Position numbers and translations under genes: made by a program. 4,109 bases of DNA from a virus. Its lineage: Duplodnaviria; Heunggongvirae; Uroviricota; Caudoviricetes. Below the pieces are notes generated by a model. The model was not told the DNA's origin, searched no databases, and worked only from the letters and a program-made list of their open reading frames with translations. Location: the IMG/VR virus record IMGVR_UViG_2663763227_000006, one strand, 5' to 3'. The number at the start of each line of letters is the position of its first letter. The first letter of the stretch is position 1. Below are positions 1 to 4,109 of this stretch, one piece after another.

Positions 1-141
1 TTCATTGGAGCACCTGTGTTGTTCTGAGGTGAGCATATCACCTCTGTTCAGGTGGCCAAATTCAGTGTGCCACTTCAGTTGTAATCTGATTTTGCTACAA
101 TATTCATGTTAGTTTCCTTGCATACGGTTACTGACATAGAG

Positions 142-185
142 GCCCGGTTTGTGTTCGCGCACTGCCGGGCTTCACTATTTTTATT
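142..185 (+). terminator. Rho-independent terminator-like hairpin on the + strand: GC stem GCCCGG (142-147) / CCGGGC (165-170) with an inner GTG/CAC pairing, followed by TTCACTATTTTTATT. It overlaps the stop codon of the Arc-like gene on the opposite strand.
   Basis: Read directly from the sequence. The U-rich tract follows the stem only on the + strand; on the - strand the stem is followed by TCTATGTCAG, so it is a poor terminator for the Arc-like transcript. Confidence 0.4.
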
Positions 186-354
186 GGGCATTATCTCTTT
201 CCTCTCTCAGGCTTTTAGCCAGTCGCTGCACAATCGCAGAGTTGATAGAAATTCCATCCATTTCAGCAACACGTCTAATCTCCTCCTTCATTCGCGCTGG
301 CAAACGAAGCTGGAAACTTTGACTTTTACGACCTGTGTAAAGCACATCTTTCAT
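181..354 (-). CDS. Arc-like ribbon-helix-helix transcriptional repressor, 57 aa (MKDVLYTGRKSQSFQLRLPARMKEEIRRVAEMDGISINSAIVQRLAKSLREERDNAQ)
   Basis: Start taken as the ATG at complement 352-354, preceded by GGGAGGA (complement 360-366) with a 6-7 nt spacer; the ORF track's longer 62-aa version begins at an in-frame GTG with no SD. The motif F-x-L-R-L-P ... V-A-E-x-x-G-x-S-x-N-S-x-I-x-Q-R resembles P22 Arc (FNLRWP ... VAEENGRSVNSEIYQRV), recalled from memory. Size matches Arc (53 aa). Confidence 0.7.
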   Translation of the reverse strand: MKDVLYTGRKSQSFQLRLPARMKEEIRRVAEMDGISINSAIVQRLAKSLREERDNAQ

Positions 355-375
355 AAGTAATCCTCCCACAATGAT

Positions 376-400
376 ACCAACTTGGTTCTAGAACCAATTT
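376..400. promoter_or_regulatory. Candidate operator: perfect 16-bp palindrome TTGGTTCTAGAACCAA (382-397) overlapping a second palindrome ACCAAcTTGGT (376-386). The half-site TTGGT/ACCAA occurs four times in the intergenic region (376-380, 382-386, 393-397, 425-429).
   Basis: Palindrome verified base by base. It lies between two divergent RHH repressor genes and overlaps the -10/TSS region of the predicted leftward promoter. RHH repressors bind tandem symmetric sites as dimers of dimers (established for Arc and Mnt). Confidence 0.55.
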
Positions 401-423
401 AACACCATTTATTTTGATGTCAA
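396..423 (-). promoter_or_regulatory. Predicted sigma70 promoter for the Arc-like gene: -35 TTGACA (complement 418-423), 16-nt spacer ending in TGT (extended -10 TG), -10 TAAATT (complement 396-401); predicted TSS near 388-390, inside the palindrome.
   Basis: Consensus -35 hexamer and extended -10 read on the minus strand at correct spacing, about 35 nt upstream of the Arc-like RBS. Confidence 0.4.
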
Positions 424-437
424 GTTGGTGCTATTGT
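409..437 (+). promoter_or_regulatory. Possible rightward promoter for the Mnt-like gene: extended -10 TGcTATTGT (429-437) with a weak AT-rich -35 region (about 409-414). It sits back to back with the leftward promoter.
   Basis: Extended -10 motif read on the + strand about 29 nt upstream of ATG 466. The -35 is poor, so this is a weak call. Confidence 0.25.
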
Positions 438-465
438 TTAGCGAACATCTTTACGTTGAGGTCAT

Positions 466-786
466 ATGAGCAAGTTCCCTAGTCATGAAATGGATAGGTT
501 CAATATCAGGCTTCCTGCAGGAATGCGGGATGCTATAGCTGAACGAGCAAAACGTAACGGCAGATCAATGAACTCAGAGATTGTTCAGATACTGGAAGAT
601 GCCTTGAATGCAGAAAATACACTCGGGGAAATAGCAGATAAAATCAACAGCGTCTCGGTTCCGCTAAATGTTGATGCGCTAGTTCAACTTCAAGCCCAGG
701 TTATCGCCATGCAAAAAGAAATACAGGAAAAGTTCAGAGAGCAGAACGAAAAGTTGAGAGAACTGCTAAACAAAAAACCCACCTGA
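466..786 (+). CDS. Mnt-like ribbon-helix-helix repressor with a C-terminal coiled-coil extension, 106 aa
   Basis: ATG 466 preceded by GAGG (458-461). N-terminal DRFNIRLP ... AKRNGRSMNSEIVQILEDAL closely parallels P22 Mnt (HFNFRMP ... ANGRSMNSELLQIVQDAL), recalled from memory. The C-terminal 50 aa are heptad-like (LVQLQAQVIAMQKEIQEKFREQNEKLRELL), consistent with the Mnt tetramerisation helix. AGG, AGA and ATA codons suggest foreign origin. Confidence 0.8.
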   Translation: MSKFPSHEMDRFNIRLPAGMRDAIAERAKRNGRSMNSEIVQILEDALNAENTLGEIADKINSVSVPLNVDALVQLQAQVIAMQKEIQEKFREQNEKLRELLNKKPT

Positions 787-812
787 AGGTGGGTTAATTT
801 TTGCCTTTTTTG
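776..812. terminator. Intrinsic terminator, probably bidirectional: stem AACCCACC (776-783) / GGTGGGTT (788-795), loop TGAA, then AATTTTTGCCTTTTTT. The Mnt-like stop codon TGA (784-786) is the loop.
   Basis: 8-bp GC-containing stem with a 4-nt loop and a T-run downstream; an A-run upstream gives a U-tract on the other strand as well. Confidence 0.6.
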
Positions 813-819
813 GACCATA

Positions 820-848
820 TTGACTACTCATAAAATGAGATCAATATT
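820..848 (+). promoter_or_regulatory. Putative sigma70 promoter for the YjzC-like gene: -35 TTGACT (820-825), 17-nt spacer, -10 AATATT (843-848)
   Basis: Hexamers read from the sequence at canonical spacing, about 35 nt upstream of ATG 885. Confidence 0.3.
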
Positions 849-884
849 TAATCGCCCAATAACGGGTGCATGTTGAGGTATATC

Positions 885-1064
885 ATGGCGAAAAAACCAG
901 GTGAAAACACAGGAAAAAACGGCGGAATATACCAAGAAGTTGGCCCGCGCGGAGGTAAGAAAGACAATTTTGCCACCGTCAAGGACAACGAAAGGCTTCC
1001 GCCAACAACAAAGCCAGGTCATGGCTGGGTATTAGATAAGCGAACTCCAGACAGCAAAAAGTAA
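885..1064 (+). CDS. YjzC-like small protein, 59 aa (MAKKPGENTGKNGGIYQEVGPRGGKKDNFATVKDNERLPPTTKPGHGWVLDKRTPDSKK); function unknown
   Basis: Start at ATG 885 with GAGG (875-878) and a 6-nt spacer, preferred over the track's upstream ATG 870. The pattern KPGE...NGxIYxEVG...PxT...W and the 59-aa length match my memory of the Bacillus YjzC family. It has its own promoter-like signal and a terminator directly after the stop. Confidence 0.6.
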   Translation: MAKKPGENTGKNGGIYQEVGPRGGKKDNFATVKDNERLPPTTKPGHGWVLDKRTPDSKK

Positions 1065-1069
1065 TAATC

Positions 1070-1092
1070 AAGCCGGGTCACTCCGGCTTTTT
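1070..1092. terminator. Bidirectional intrinsic terminator between convergent genes: stem AAGCCGG (1070-1076) / CCGGCTT (1083-1089), loop GTCACT, then TTTTT. The stop codon of the minus-strand HExxH gene (complement 1078-1080) is in the loop.
   Basis: Hairpin and flanking U-rich tracts on both strands read from the sequence; located exactly between the 3' ends of 885..1064 (+) and 1078..1443 (-). Confidence 0.6.
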
Positions 1093-1443
1093 GATATGTC
1101 GCTCGCAGAACTCAACAAGCCTGCTCATTAAGTAGCAGTAAGTCTCGTTGGCTCTTCCTGGTTCAACATCAACGCCGACCCTTGAGCAGATATCGAATGC
1201 CATGTGAGCGCACTCATGGGCAATAGTAGATAGTTTGCCATTGAACACACCTATCACATGCAAAACACCATTCTCGCTGCTCATTGTATGAGACGCTCCG
1301 TTGGCATCCGAGTCCTGCACGTCCACGCCAAGTTTTTGATGCAGGCGTTGCCATTCTGGAAAGTCTCTGCAAAACACAATTGTACCGCTCTCAAAGAGCG
1401 GAACGAGCATTTTTGGTACGTTTCCAATGTTAACTTTTTTCAT
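1078..1443 (-). CDS. Hypothetical small protein with an HExxH zinc-binding motif (IAHECAHMAFD, with a downstream Glu in GRANETY), 121 aa; putative minimal gluzincin/ImmA-like metallopeptidase
   Basis: Intact 121-codon ORF with a weak SD (AGGA, 4-nt spacer) before ATG 1443. The HExxH plus downstream Glu arrangement is the gluzincin signature. The overlapping + strand reading (1258..1473) has no RBS and a junk-like composition. Family not recognised beyond the motif. Confidence 0.55.
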   Translation of the reverse strand: MKKVNIGNVPKMLVPLFESGTIVFCRDFPEWQRLHQKLGVDVQDSDANGASHTMSSENGVLHVIGVFNGKLSTIAHECAHMAFDICSRVGVDVEPGRANETYCYLMSRLVEFCERHIKKPE

Positions 1444-1473
1444 GGTATCCTGCTCAAAACTAAGGAGGTTGGT

Positions 1474-1701
1474 GTGAAGCGATGGTTCCTCATAATTACT
1501 GCTTTCGCGATCATTTACACTATTTTCCCTGCATTAAAAGCACCAATGCAAATAATTTCACTAGCAATAATTGCGATTAGTGCTTTCATTGTAGTGGCTG
1601 TACTTGTGTTTAAGATTTTAAATTTTTTAGTTTGGCTATCAAAAGATGATGGATGCAAAGTTTATCAAGAAAAAGAAGGCAAAATAACCAAAGGTGACTA
1701 A
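1474..1701 (+). CDS. Small membrane protein with two predicted transmembrane helices, 75 aa (VKRWFLIITAFAIIYTIFPALKAPMQIISLAIIAISAFIVVAVLVFKILNFLVWLSKDDGCKVYQEKEGKITKGD); GTG start
   Basis: Consensus SD AGGAGG (1463-1468) five nt before GTG 1474. Two hydrophobic stretches (WFLIITAFAIIYTIF and IISLAIIAISAFIVVAVLVF) followed by a charged tail. The long track ORF from ATG 1258 is rejected because its first half is antisense to the HExxH gene. Confidence 0.5.
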   Translation: MKRWFLIITAFAIIYTIFPALKAPMQIISLAIIAISAFIVVAVLVFKILNFLVWLSKDDGCKVYQEKEGKITKGD

Positions 1702-3388
1702 CTGTCACTAGCGAGCCATGTAATAATCCCCGTGCGGGCAATGGTTTTTGCTTCATCTGTTGATAAGGTTTTCTCCCATCTCTTAAATGCCCCAGATTGC
1801 ATCAGTTTCCTTTCTATTACGCGTCTCACTTCTGCTCTGTCTACTGGTGCGTTTTGCAGGCGAAATAGCATTAATTTAAACTCAGGAGAAGACAGTAGAG
1901 CATCAGCAGCCTTTATCCTGCTTGTTTTCCCTGACATCAATGCGGACGTTATCACCCCTGTTGCACCTACACCAGGAAGACCAGATAAGCTTGTAATACC
2001 TTCCGCCGCAGCAGCTTTTGAGGCTATTCCATAAATTTTTGCGAGACTACCCTTTTCTTTCAGAAAGTTATTAACTTGCTGATCCACAAGACTACTAGCA
2101 TGCTGCTTACCAGTATTGAGTCTATTCATAGCCTTAGCTGCTTGATAAATCGTATCAAGGCGCTTTGATGCATCTGTGCCAATAGCATCACGGAGAGCCT
2201 TCATATTGGCCCCATTGCGTGACATTCCGTTATACCATTTTACAAATCCATCAACTCCTAATTGCTGACCAGGTGATTTGGCATAGCTGGTAAATGCTTT
2301 ATTCATTGAGGTGAGCGCAACTTCCTGCCGCATATCCTTTGGAATTGACTTCATTAATTGCCTAAAGTCACCACCGTTTCCTTTTGCCATATTAACAACG
2401 GCACTTTCAACTTTTGGAATTGCTGATTGCTGAAGTTTTCTACCCAAGACGGTTACAGCATCATCTTCAATGGATTTTCGTTTTTTTACCAACTCCTTAC
2501 CAAGCGTCCATAATTCCCCTGCGCCATATTTTTCTGCAACAGCCTGTTGGTCATCTGTTATGGCTGCATATAACTTTTTAAGAACACCTGTTTCTTCATC
2601 CTTGAATGGGCCAGAGCCTTTGCCAATAGCTTGTCCAACCTGCTTTCTAGCGAGATCTAAACGCCCATACGTTGGCAAGGTGTTTGGATCAAGTCGGTTC
2701 AATGTCCGCTTCATTATTGGAGATAATTCATCAATTCCACCTATGTCATCAGCAAAATCCTCTAAAAAATTCAATGTATTAGTTGCCTCAATCCGGTCTC
2801 TTACAGGTACCTTTTCGGCAATTTTGTTGTAGATGTTATCTGACTGATTTTGTAATGATGAAATGGTTTTATCAAAATTATCTGCAAGCCTGTCAGAAAC
2901 CAGTTGCTTATCAAGGTTTCCCCCAAATGAAGTTATCATTTCATCAGCTTTTCTTCCTAATTCAGTAATAAAACGCTTATGCGCCTCACTAATCTCTGTT
3001 CCAGGGAGACTTGCCACTGCATTATCAAGAGCCCTGACAGCAGGATTATTAGAGATCATGCCTGGAGTGGCATAATTTTCCAGTTCTAGCTCACGAATAG
3101 CATTTATCGCGTTAAAATCAGGATTAACTTCATCGGCGAAATCTTGAATAGCTCGTTGCCCACCAATAAATTTATTATCCATTGCGCCAGCAGCTTTCTT
3201 TAACGTTGCTTTAGATGATTTACTACCCATCCCTACGGATGAGCGATAAATATCTCCGGCACTATTTTTAATTTTTCCTGCAATCTTCCCAAGCGCTGGA
3301 CCAACAATCTCGGCTACAGGGCCAGCCACAGCGCCAATAGCAGCGCCGGAAGCAACATCGCTATTTGTTCCATTGGCTACAATAGCCC
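1698..3388 (-). CDS. Large hypothetical protein, at least 563 codons, 5' end interrupted by the IS629-like insertion. Gly/Ala-rich N-terminal part of the fragment, then a long mostly helical K/E/Q/A-rich body. Tentatively a phage virion protein (ejection-protein-like or tape-measure-like).
   Basis: The reading frame stays open upstream of the track's GTG at 3329 and runs without any ATG/GTG/TTG or SD through 3388 into the IS terminal repeat, stopping at 3414-3416. So the true start lies beyond the IS. Function is inferred only from composition and from position relative to the immI-like module (P22 order: gene 16, sieA, mnt, arc, ant). No sequence identity to a named protein is claimed. Confidence 0.75.
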
Positions 3389-3442
3389 TGAACCGCCCCG
3401 GGAATCCTGGAGACTAAACTTCCTGAGAAAGAGGTAAACAGG

Positions 3443-3769
3443 ATGACTAAAAATACTCGTTTTTCCCCCGAAGTCCGTCAACGGGCAGTCCGTATGGTTC
3501 TGGAAAGTCAGAGCGAATATGACTCACAATGGGCGACAATTTGTTCCATTGCTCCAAAGATTGGCTGTACGCCGGAGACTCTGCGTGTCTGGGTTCGCCA
3601 GCATGAGCGGGATACCGGGGGCGGTGATGGAGGGCTCACCACCGCTGAACGTCAGCGTCTGAAAGAGCTGGAACGTGAAAATCGTGAACTGCGCCGCAGT
3701 AACGATATCCTTCGCCAGGCTTCCGCTTATTTTGCGAAGGCGGAGTTCGACCGCCTCTGGAAAAAATGA
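3443..3769 (+). CDS. IS629-family transposase OrfA (helix-turn-helix and leucine-zipper part), 108 aa
   Basis: The protein [23 protein letters not shown]...[22 protein letters not shown] is recognisable as IS629 OrfA. An RBS GAGG lies upstream of ATG 3443. Confidence 0.95.
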
Positions 3770-4109
3770 TGCCACTGCTGGATAAGCTGCGTGAGCAGTA
3801 CGGGGTCGGACCGCTATGCAGCGAACTGCATATTGCCCCGTCAACGTATTACCACTGTCAGCAACAGCGACATCATCCGGATAAACGCAGTGCCCGTGCG
3901 CAGCGCGATGACTGGCTGAAGAAAGAGATACAGCGCGTATACGATGAAAATCACAAGGTATACGGTGTGCGTAAAGTCTGGCGTCAGTTGTTACGGGAAG
4001 GTATCAGAGTGGCCAGATGCACTGTGGCACGTCTCATGGCGGTTATGGGACTTGCCGGTGTTCTCCGGGGTAAAAAGGTCCGCACTACCGTCAGCCGGAA
4101 AGCCGTTGC
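3766..4109 (+). CDS. IS629-family transposase OrfB (DDE catalytic part), N-terminal 114 codons only; 3' end outside the window. Expressed in this family as an OrfAB fusion by -1 frameshifting.
   Basis: Frame -1 relative to orfA, starting ATGATG at 3766 and reading [75 protein letters not shown]..., as remembered for IS629 OrfB. The A6 run at 3761-3766 lies in the orfA/orfB overlap. Not in the ORF track because it runs off the end. Confidence 0.9.

Follow-up and report, generated by a model that had tools for sequence, protein, structure and literature searches.

Two small repressor genes that diverge from a palindrome-rich spacer in a 4,109-bp stretch of tailed-phage DNA (IMG/VR record IMGVR_UViG_2663763227_000006; referred to throughout as the window) raise the question of whether this locus is a P22-type immunity switch and, if so, which of the two repressors its palindromes serve. 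Our analysis makes it highly likely that positions 78-795 represent the regulatory cassette of an immI-type module ('ant moron') from a P22-like prophage of the E. coli/Shigella type, with a recognition allele that differs from that of P22. The cassette comprises two small divergent repressors, a common promoter/operator region and an antisense RNA gene, and is a real but fairly ordinary example of the well-known P22 secondary-immunity (immI) control.

The arc-like gene (181-354, minus strand, 57 aa) and the mnt-like gene (466-786, plus strand, 106 aa) diverge from a 111-bp spacer (355-465), as stated in a preliminary description of this DNA. The arc-like open reading frame begins at an ATG with GGAGGA six nt upstream; the GTG at 369 in the open reading frame list is an upstream extension of it. 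Both proteins matched the Pfam Arc family PF03869 above its cut-off of 20.4 bits (Arc-like, 45.1 bits, 9.3e-12; Mnt-like, 73.1 bits, 1.6e-20). The Arc-like protein was closer to the solved structure of Arc (1arq, 2.1e-5) than to that of Mnt (0.06), while the Mnt-like protein was closer to Mnt (1mnt, 6.7e-8) than to Arc (3.5e-5). The strand and both helices of the ribbon-helix-helix (RHH) fold, with the G-x-S-x-N-S-E turn, aligned residue by residue to 1arq, 1mnt and 3qoq, which places the pair in the Arc/Mnt RHH family and not in a non-RHH family. The Arc-like protein shares 42% identity with P22 Arc over 43 aa, and in its beta strand, SQSFQLRLP, the residues S/Q/R occupy the positions of Arc Q9/N11/R13. 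The corresponding strand of the Mnt-like protein is DRFNIRLP, with residues R/N/R.

The similarity of the Mnt-like protein to P22 Mnt is confined to residues 12-48 (54% identity). BLASTP and phmmer alignments ended at residues 48-51, and no C-terminal homology to the P22 Mnt tetramerisation domain (residues ~50-82) was detected. The gene is a mosaic, its C-terminal part being 97-100% identical in DNA to Stx-phage genes. A single-sequence AF2 model of the monomer (mean pLDDT 66), used for secondary structure only, gave helices at 18-30, 36-62 and 69-102 (low confidence); the two RHH helices were present and the strand was unformed, as expected because the dimer partner was absent. The C-terminal part, which would consist of one long helix (~69-102), is unrelated to that of P22 and may still be capable of oligomerising.

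The surroundings of the gene pair are also those of P22. Positions 770-1476 are 97% identical to the orf59a/sieA-proximal region of P22, and beyond the orf59a-like region lies an open reading frame for a gene-16-type DNA transfer (injection) protein, truncated by a second insertion sequence (IS). A bidirectional intrinsic terminator is predicted at 776-795, overlapping the mnt stop codon. Intact E. coli copies have the order gp16, mnt-like and arc-like (divergent), P22AR-type antirepressor and tailspike, with the full arrangement seen in E. coli 55989; the module lies in a P22-like late operon, with the gene 16 homologue on one side and the tailspike on the other. The antirepressor gene follows arc in 13 complete E. 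coli genomes. Together with the RHH family matches and the P22-like flanks, this bears out the earlier proposal of a P22 immI-like switch with two repressors resembling Arc and Mnt. A 121-aa HExxH open reading frame gave an AF2 model (pLDDT 45) too poor for a fold search.

The partner gene ant had been thought to lie beyond the left edge or to be missing. Instead, its start and first 10 codons (78-107, minus strand; ATG at 107-105; MNIVAKSDYN) are in the window, cut by the end of an IS3-family element and stopped by a TGA inside that end. In E. coli 55989 the equivalent base is the start of a 208-aa protein with a P22AR C-terminal domain. The element is IS911-like, with its terminal ~77 nt at positions 1-77 (minus strand), its end TGAAGTGGC... 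facing right and its transposase ATG at the left window edge. Complete E. coli copies of the module align to the window only from position 77, and positions 1-~92, compared with 4048 E. coli genomes, gave thousands of matches whose annotation reads IS3-like element IS911 family transposase or simply transposase. Neither IS junction of the window was found in the compared relative loci, and an exact search for the IS/ant junction in a set with one genome per species gave no match. The prophage that carries the cassette is decaying.

Between ant and arc, positions 108-~182 (plus strand) share 62% identity with the sar antisense RNA of P22 and adopt the same two-hairpin fold. The ant ribosome-binding site has its complement in hairpin 1 (108-135), and hairpin 2 (139-173) with its T-run forms a terminator that overlaps the arc stop codon. 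Over 18 distinct sequences, 99% of the pair cells were paired compared with 25-56% when the partners were slid, and two pairs showed compensatory changes. A scan of the RNA against Rfam returned no family above threshold, with a weak 21.8-bit symR-like match over the same span. Alignment with P-sar and sar as annotated in P22 identified the P-sar -10 hexamer as TACAAT (96-101, plus strand; TATACT at the same position in P22), and the IS end now occupies the place of the -35 region. Comparison shows the homology and fold of this RNA, and we infer its function by analogy with P22.

Back-to-back overlapping promoters are predicted in the spacer. The leftward, P-ant-type promoter (396-423, minus strand) has a -35 TTGACA (423-418), a 16-nt spacer and an extended -10 TGtTAAATT (404-396); it scored 10/12 plus the extended TG in a consensus scan, and its hexamers are conserved in relatives. 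As the preliminary description had it, this promoter is near consensus and its predicted start (A389/G388) coincides with the palindrome centre (389/390). The rightward, P-mnt-type promoter was read directly from the sequence as an extended -10, TGcTATTGT (429-437, plus strand), of which TGCTATnnT is conserved in all relatives. Its -35 (TTATTT, 409-414) is weak, and the scan missed it for want of a -35 match; the predicted start is at about A444. Across 22 distinct spacers, TGTCAA, AATTTA and TGCTATnnT are all conserved.

The spacer had also been described as holding nested palindromic operators. The sequences are there: a perfect 16-bp palindrome, TTGGTTCTAGAACCAA, at 382-397, the longest in the window; a second palindrome, ACCAAcTTGGT, overlapping it at 376-386; and a further TTGGT half-site at 425-429, abutting the TG of the rightward extended -10. 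A better reading than nesting is a set of three CAAnTTGG-type boxes that go with the Mnt-like protein. Box L (ACCAAcTTGGT, 376-386) is centred at 381, 15 nt downstream of the leftward -10, and covers +4 to +14 of the predicted arc-ant transcript. Box M (ACCAAtTTAAC, 393-403) is half-degenerate, contains the conserved CCAATTTA and overlaps the leftward -10. Box R (GTCAAgTTGGT, 419-429) shares bases with the leftward -35 and lies directly against the rightward extended -10. The 16-bp palindrome joins the right half of box L to the left half of box M across a 6-bp spacer with the predicted start.

Conservation within the palindrome is limited to the arms and CTA. The arms TTGG...CCAA are present in 28/28 distinct spacers of relatives with the same Mnt-like N-domain, while the central TCTAGA varies, relatives carrying TCTAAA, TCTACA, ACTACA or ACTAGC. 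Judged from this alignment, the perfect palindrome is partly accidental, and each of its conserved arms is half of a CAAnTTGG box. In these boxes the middle base varies (C, G or T) and the arms are constant, as expected for a dyad-symmetric site. The boxes are spaced by 17 and 26 bp, which is at odds with a P22-style tetramer and its adjacent half-sites; L and R are 43 bp apart, about four helical turns. The boxes adjoin the mnt end of the spacer or overlap promoter hexamers, and because R contains the -35 and M the -10, their conservation is partly that of the promoters. Two further arrangements were considered and rejected: an array of ACCA/TGGT motifs, either omega- or MetJ-like (10-11 bp phasing) or with three subsites at 8.5 bp, the first and central motifs of which are not conserved, and an extended 17-nt inverted repeat (368-384/421-437), of which only the CAAnTTG core is conserved in KP12-type relatives.

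Comparison of natural allele combinations indicated which repressor the boxes follow. All 28 distinct spacers located beside an Mnt N-domain with the strand RFN[IV]RLP carry CAAnTTGG boxes, and the beta strand of the Arc partner takes four forms (SFQLRLP, VFNLRLP, QFSLRLP and RFTLNLP; locus L073 included). Conversely, CCAA/TTGG boxes are missing from the six loci in which the Arc of the window is paired with another Mnt (IERFTVRMP); these loci carry in the same place a 21-bp palindrome, ATGACATCA-CCA-TGATGTCAT. Loci L020 and L051 have one Arc in common and differ in Mnt and in box (GGCAAaTTGCC versus GGCAttATGCC). The boxes follow the Mnt-like N-terminal domain, not Arc, and on this comparative evidence are best read as an Mnt-type operator. 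Linkage could contribute to the co-variation, but recombination joints on both sides of box L in the L063 and L176 chimeras argue against pure linkage. P22 O-mnt (AGGTCCACCGTGGACCT) and O-arc were searched for in the spacer and are absent, and the spacer sequences are unrelated; these findings point to a hetero-immune allele, in line with the distinct specificity variant suggested earlier.

The Arc-like protein must also be considered as a ligand of the palindrome. Arc contacts TAGA boxes of its operator, and the TCTAGA core holds two overlapping TAGA(A) motifs that resemble those boxes in P22 (arc operator ATGATAGAAGCACTCTACTAT). Most relatives keep TAGAACC on the minus strand, and the site spans the start point of the Arc-encoding transcript, which would suit autoregulation. 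An Arc-like operator here, with only the outer box or boxes left to Mnt, is nevertheless unlikely: relatives with an identical Arc beta strand have the non-palindromic cores TCTAAA, TCTACA and TCTAGT; L176-type loci, whose Arc is that of the window from residue 8, have neither TAGA/TCTA nor TTGG...CCAA in the spacer; the conserved CTA is accounted for by the start site; and the palindrome arms track Mnt. A k-mer comparison of seven spacers with the S/Q/R Arc strand extracted no Arc-specific operator, the words in common being promoter elements only (ATGTCAA, CACCA and TGCTA). Between the window and the L176 chimera the shared words are limited to ACACCATT and TGATGTCA, the latter linked to the -35 and neither significant alone, which leaves ACACCATT at 402-409, in the promoter spacer, as the only candidate Arc-like site.

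That the palindromes are chance or restriction-site-like features, with both repressors binding elsewhere, we regard as very unlikely. Dinucleotide shuffling produced a perfect palindrome with arms of at least 8 in 14.7% of cases for the whole 4.1-kb window, but in only 0.46% for the 111-bp spacer; moreover, the arms are conserved over 66-87% diverged relatives and are replaced wholesale when the Mnt allele changes. Still less probable is that the pair belongs to another RHH system, either as antitoxins of a toxin-antitoxin locus or as plasmid-type partition/centromere-binding proteins, and that the palindromes are the corresponding operator or centromere. Pfam matches to HicB, CopG_antitoxin and FitA-like RHH families lie below or near threshold and reflect generic RHH similarity. 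Some matching PHROG families are labelled 'partition protein ATPase', and some phage records name mnt in this way, but no toxin or ParA open reading frame was found beside either gene in the window or in the relatives examined. Four features put the pair in immI: gene order, P22-identical flanks, the presence of ant in intact copies, and the sar homologue.

With the boxes taken as Mnt-type operators, the cassette would operate as follows. The strong leftward promoter (423-396) would transcribe arc and read through the sar hairpin into ant, and the weak extended -10 promoter (429-437) would drive mnt rightward; by analogy with P22, RNA polymerase at one of the overlapping promoters may exclude it from the other. 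The Mnt-like protein is predicted to bind L (past the start), M (over the -10) and R (over the -35 and beside the mnt -10), which would shut off arc-ant transcription in the lysogen, and binding at R would probably limit its own synthesis too. The Arc-like protein, made from the leftward transcript, may feed back on the promoter pair as P22 Arc does, and the sar-like RNA would pair with the ant ribosome-binding site and block translation. In the decayed copy, ant is gone beyond codon 10 and the sar -35 has given way to the IS3-family element, and the cassette now controls nothing in cis. A more speculative extension, which we consider rather doubtful, is that an Mnt-like oligomer formed through the long C-terminal helix bridges L and R, with M between them, and locks both promoters in a small loop or wrap, and that the ant-less remnant with mnt, arc and sar then persists as a stand-alone 'anti-antirepressor' immunity cassette. 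L and R boxes flanking the promoter pair could represent an operator geometry not described for P22 Mnt. If this extension were true, incoming phages of the same allele would have their ant silenced by the ant-less cassette, which would protect resident prophages from induction.

As a single instance of a textbook system in a new allele, the window is of modest value. The comparative panel offers more, with dozens of natural Arc/spacer/Mnt combinations in which the boxes change with the Mnt N-terminal arm and the first strand residue. Mnt strands with R/N/R accompany CCAAnTTGG, those with K/T/R accompany GGCAAnTTGCC, those with R/T/R accompany ATGACATCA-N3-TGATGTCAT, and the H/N/R strand of P22 accompanies GGTCCACnGTGGACC. 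The DNA-binding cassette (arc, spacer and mnt N-domain) recombines independently of the Mnt C-terminal domain, and the sar terminator acts as a recombination joint. The panel is a ready-made natural series for the RHH recognition code and parallels the classic experiments in which the N termini of Arc and Mnt were swapped (Knight and Sauer 1989, cited in PMC3413123).

Compared with P22 immI (regulatory logic, PMC11016777; parts as annotated in the P22 record), the locus has the same divergent mnt and arc with overlapping back-to-back promoters, the same ~75-nt spacer after arc encoding a two-hairpin antisense RNA that starts beside the ant ATG and ends at the arc stop codon, a site of dyad symmetry with its centre 15 nt downstream of the leftward -10 (O-mnt in P22, box L here), and the same position between gene 16 and the tailspike, with orf59a DNA 97% identical. 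It differs in the base-contacting residues (Q/N/R in Arc and H/N/R in Mnt of P22; S/Q/R and R/N/R here), in operators unrelated in sequence to those of P22, in three Mnt-type boxes bracketing both promoters as opposed to one 17-bp operator, in a promoter offset of about 14 bp compared with 5 bp, and in an Mnt-like C-terminal domain without sequence similarity to that of P22. Ant is a 208-aa P22AR-C-domain protein in intact relatives and a 300-aa protein in P22, and in this window its gene has been destroyed by an IS.

The 'ant moron' between genes 16 and 9 is known to vary among P22-like phages: sixteen genomes yielded ten types, and IS elements or truncations had damaged some of them (Villafane et al. 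2008, PMC2629481). The genomic slot and the kinds of gene are those seen here, although the morons were compared there by gene content. Variable ant morons having been described already, the window is a further allele of a known system; our literature search found no description of operators, promoters or sar for this allele. Modules of the siphoviruses vB_SosS_Oslo, SPN3UB and Klebsiella phage KP12 share 67-76% DNA identity with the window over arc, spacer and the mnt N-domain, and the boxes and promoters of Oslo and KP12 are identical in kind to those of the window. In contrast to the window, these are Arc-like/Arc-like/Ant modules among the tail genes of long-tailed phages, their Mnt C-terminal domains differ, and arc overlaps ant, so that there is no sar; in SPN3UB, moreover, both proteins have the strand residues K/N/R and the boxes are different. 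Finally, the best solved-structure match of the Mnt-like N-domain (1.3e-8), extended N-terminal arm included, was to AmrZ of Pseudomonas aeruginosa (PDB 3qoq), a virulence regulator encoded on the chromosome, without an immI context.

The two divergent genes flanking the 111-bp spacer (355-465) encode an arc-like protein of 57 aa (354..181, minus strand) and an mnt-like protein of 106 aa (466-786, plus strand), with a bidirectional terminator (776-795) at the end of the mnt-like gene. The proposed resemblance to P22 Arc and Mnt was borne out: both proteins passed the Pfam Arc threshold, and among solved structures the arc-like protein preferred Arc (2.1e-5) over Mnt (0.058) and the mnt-like protein preferred Mnt (6.7e-8) over Arc (3.5e-5), with AmrZ as its top match. 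Identity was 42% to P22 Arc (43 residues) and 54% to P22 Mnt (residues 12-48 only). The arc-like strand carries S/Q/R at the Arc Q9/N11/R13 positions and the mnt-like strand R/N/R at the Mnt H6/N8/R10 positions. Comparison of the C-terminal half of the mnt-like protein with P22 Mnt revealed no similarity; a single long helix (69-102) was predicted here (AF2 model, low confidence). The mnt-like gene has a mosaic DNA sequence: up to ~535 it is 80-87% identical to phage Oslo/KP12-type alleles, and from ~565 it shares 97-100% identity with an Arc-family gene of Stx-converting phages. Its DNA-binding and C-terminal domains are swapped independently of each other.

The perfect 16-bp palindrome TTGGTTCTAGAACCAA (382-397), ACCAAcTTGGT (376-386) and TTGGT (425-429) listed in the preliminary description were all correct on checking the window. 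The near-consensus leftward promoter (423-396, minus strand; TTGACA at 423-418, 16 nt, TGtTAAATT at 404-396) likewise held, scoring 10/12 plus an extended TG, with the predicted start (A389/G388) at the palindrome centre. TTGGTTCTAGAACCAA is the longest palindrome in the window; one this long occurred in 14.7% of whole-window shuffles versus 0.46% of 111-bp spacer shuffles. Alignment of 22 distinct spacers with the Mnt N-domain MS.FPSxEMDRFN[IV]RLP revealed conserved blocks at CAAnTTGG (378-385; box L core, middle base C, G or T), CTA (388-390; predicted start site), CCAATTTA (394-401; box M left half and -10), CAC(C)AT (403-408) and ATGTCAAGTwGGTGCTAT (417-433; -35, box R and the rightward extended -10 TGcTATnnT). 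The palindrome centre TCTAGA varied among relatives (TCTAAA, TCTACA, ACTACA or ACTAGC). Because this centre is not kept, the perfect palindrome is read as two half-boxes, the right one of box L and the left one of box M, with a 6-bp spacer between them. The three boxes are thus L (ACCAAcTTGGT, centre 381), M (ACCAAtTTAAC, centre 398) and R (GTCAAgTTGGT, centre 424; 43 bp from L).

Ownership of these boxes was judged on natural chimeras, which we rated better evidence than position. The window-type Mnt N-domain pairs with four Arc strands (SFQLRLP, VFNLRLP, QFSLRLP and RFTLNLP; locus L073 is among these), and the boxes were kept in 28/28 distinct spacers of this Mnt N-domain despite the differing Arc strands. 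In six loci, an Arc identical to the window's from residue 8 onwards is paired with another Mnt (IERFTVRMP); CCAA/TTGG was absent from their spacers, and a 21-bp palindrome, ATGACATCA-CCA-TGATGTCAT, was found at the O-mnt position. Loci L020 and L051 have one Arc in common but neither the same Mnt nor the same boxes (GGCAAaTTGCC versus GGCAttATGCC). Taken together, these chimeras argue that the spacer boxes follow Mnt, which is consistent with a mosaic joint lying within mnt and with the finding, as cited in PMC3413123, that a short N-terminal region determines Arc/Mnt specificity (Knight and Sauer 1989; Raumann et al. 1995). Comparison of spacers with the same Arc identified no Arc-specific element. 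The sole non-promoter word common to both spacer types with the same Arc was ACACCATT (402-409); it lies between the promoter hexamers, the place of O-arc in P22, and is a tentative candidate for such an element. Further immI alleles, in the spacers of L205, L191, L198, L020 and L051, had the same design with other words, including GCCCCACTGTGGGGC and CCCCACCGTGGGG flanking the promoters and also TGGTATAACCGTTATACCA; CTACACCGTG repeats are present where the strand PLGIRIP is common to Arc and Mnt. Together these alleles make up a series of natural RHH-operator pairings.

The partner gene of arc had been described as beyond the left edge or missing. Its start codon (107..105, minus strand) and 10 codons (MNIVAKSDYN) in fact lie inside the window, and the rest has been lost to an IS, the terminal TGAAGTGG of which supplies the stop after codon 10. 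The arc-ant spacer of P22 encodes sar, a 70-nt antisense RNA (annotated in AF527608), and a homologue was identified at 108-~182 on the plus strand (62% identity in alignment). The two share an identical TTACTGAC block and the 5' end GTT(A/G)GTTT, which directly abuts the ant ATG. The homologue ends in a GC-rich terminator hairpin with a T-run overlapping the arc stop codon; this terminator is a recombination joint. The P-sar -10 (96-101) is TACAAT versus TATACT in P22, and IS sequence occupies the place of the -35. Searching viral contigs by pattern yielded 35 distinct sequences of the sar type. A two-hairpin structure was 99% paired on 18 of the 35, versus 25-56% with partners slid, with compensatory changes at 2 pairs and G-U/A-U or G-C switches at 4. 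Rfam gave only a sub-threshold symR-like match on the homologue span. At the equivalent of window 170-200, IMG/VR loci L086-L205 had this sar together with the ant 5' end, joined immediately past the sar terminator to many unrelated genes (among them several arc alleles, small Cys-rich proteins and an HTH repressor).

Bases 77-800 were present in 13 complete E. coli genomes (98.5-99.9% identity). The order in E. coli 55989 is tail needle, DUF2824 protein, DNA transfer proteins, gp16-type protein, three small ORFs, mnt-like, arc-like (divergent), a 208-aa antirepressor with a P22AR C-terminal domain, two ORFs, a third Arc-family gene and tailspike; the third Arc-family gene (L001, the 55989 locus, 4098-4352) encodes 84 aa and adjoins the tailspike gene. 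These intact copies, with an antirepressor after arc, and the 97% identity of window 770-1476 to the P22 orf59a / pre-sieA region uphold the proposed immI-like arrangement. The same slot was named the 'ant moron' of P22-like phages by Villafane et al., with ten types in sixteen genomes, some IS-damaged (PMC2629481). Diverged arc-spacer-mnt cassettes (67-76% DNA identity) also occur in three siphoviruses, Oslo, SPN3UB and KP12, where they lie amid the tail genes and an Ant/Rha gene comes next in each. The module occurs commonly among E. coli prophages and IMG/VR contigs; in RefSeq its products are labelled Arc-family proteins and a P22AR-domain protein. The system is a member of a well-described kind.

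The 4109 bp of the window look like a piece of a P22-like prophage in decay. Its left edge (1-77) is the end of an IS3-family element: module copies in complete E. coli genomes match only from base 77, and for bases 1-~92 there are thousands of matching IS copies, with IS911-family or IS3-family transposase as their annotation. The gp16-type DNA-transfer ORF (1698-3329, minus strand) aligned only to residues 166-707 of a 707-aa PHROG and therefore lacks its N-terminus (first ~165 residues); this injection protein gene is cut by a second IS3-family element, which starts near 3389 (3389-4109) and carries OrfA (3443-3769), which we take to be that of IS629/IS1203, and an ALIL frameshift pseudoknot (3724-3840, 120 bits). 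With ant gone, the -35 of the sar promoter lost and gene 16 broken, the cassette is a remnant; the arc-like and mnt-like ORFs are still intact and almost identical to their counterparts in intact prophages. The intervening region holds an orf59a homologue (885-1064, plus strand; weak YjzC-like match) with its own promoter-like site (820-848) and terminator (1070-1089), and a 75-aa hydrophobic ORF (1474-1701, plus strand; phrog_7294) at the P22 sieA position. A 121-aa ORF (1078-1443, minus strand; phrog_1365) has an HExxH motif (IAHECAHMAF) and no Pfam match; it sits in sequence that matches P22 at 97% identity, the P22 record AF527608 listing no gene on this strand there, and could encode a small metalloprotease-like protein within the antirepressor region.

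The P22 circuit has Mnt as the repressor of arc-ant and Arc as the repressor of mnt and a moderator of ant, with sar blocking the ant mRNA (PMC11016777). By homology, the window-type module would work in the same way. The strong leftward and weak extended -10 rightward promoters overlap, which would set them in competition for polymerase. Bound at boxes L, M and R, the Mnt-like protein would switch off the leftward promoter and, via box R, probably limit its own synthesis; the Arc-like protein would feed back onto the promoter pair, and the sar-like RNA would pair with the ant ribosome-binding site. Overall, the observation in the preliminary description is confirmed and its interpretation supported, with refinements; the module is chiefly of value as one of a series of natural alleles that bear on RHH-operator recognition.

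The centre of box L lies 15 nt from the leftward -10, and P22 O-mnt is centred at the identical distance. As had been proposed, the operators are distinct from those of P22, differing in sequence together with the strand residues. Three boxes bracket the promoters in the window, in contrast to the one 17-bp O-mnt of P22, and the promoter offset is ~14 bp compared with 5 bp. The C-terminal domain of the mnt-like protein is unrelated to that of P22 Mnt, and the Ant of the window's intact relatives is shorter than P22 Ant and of a different build.
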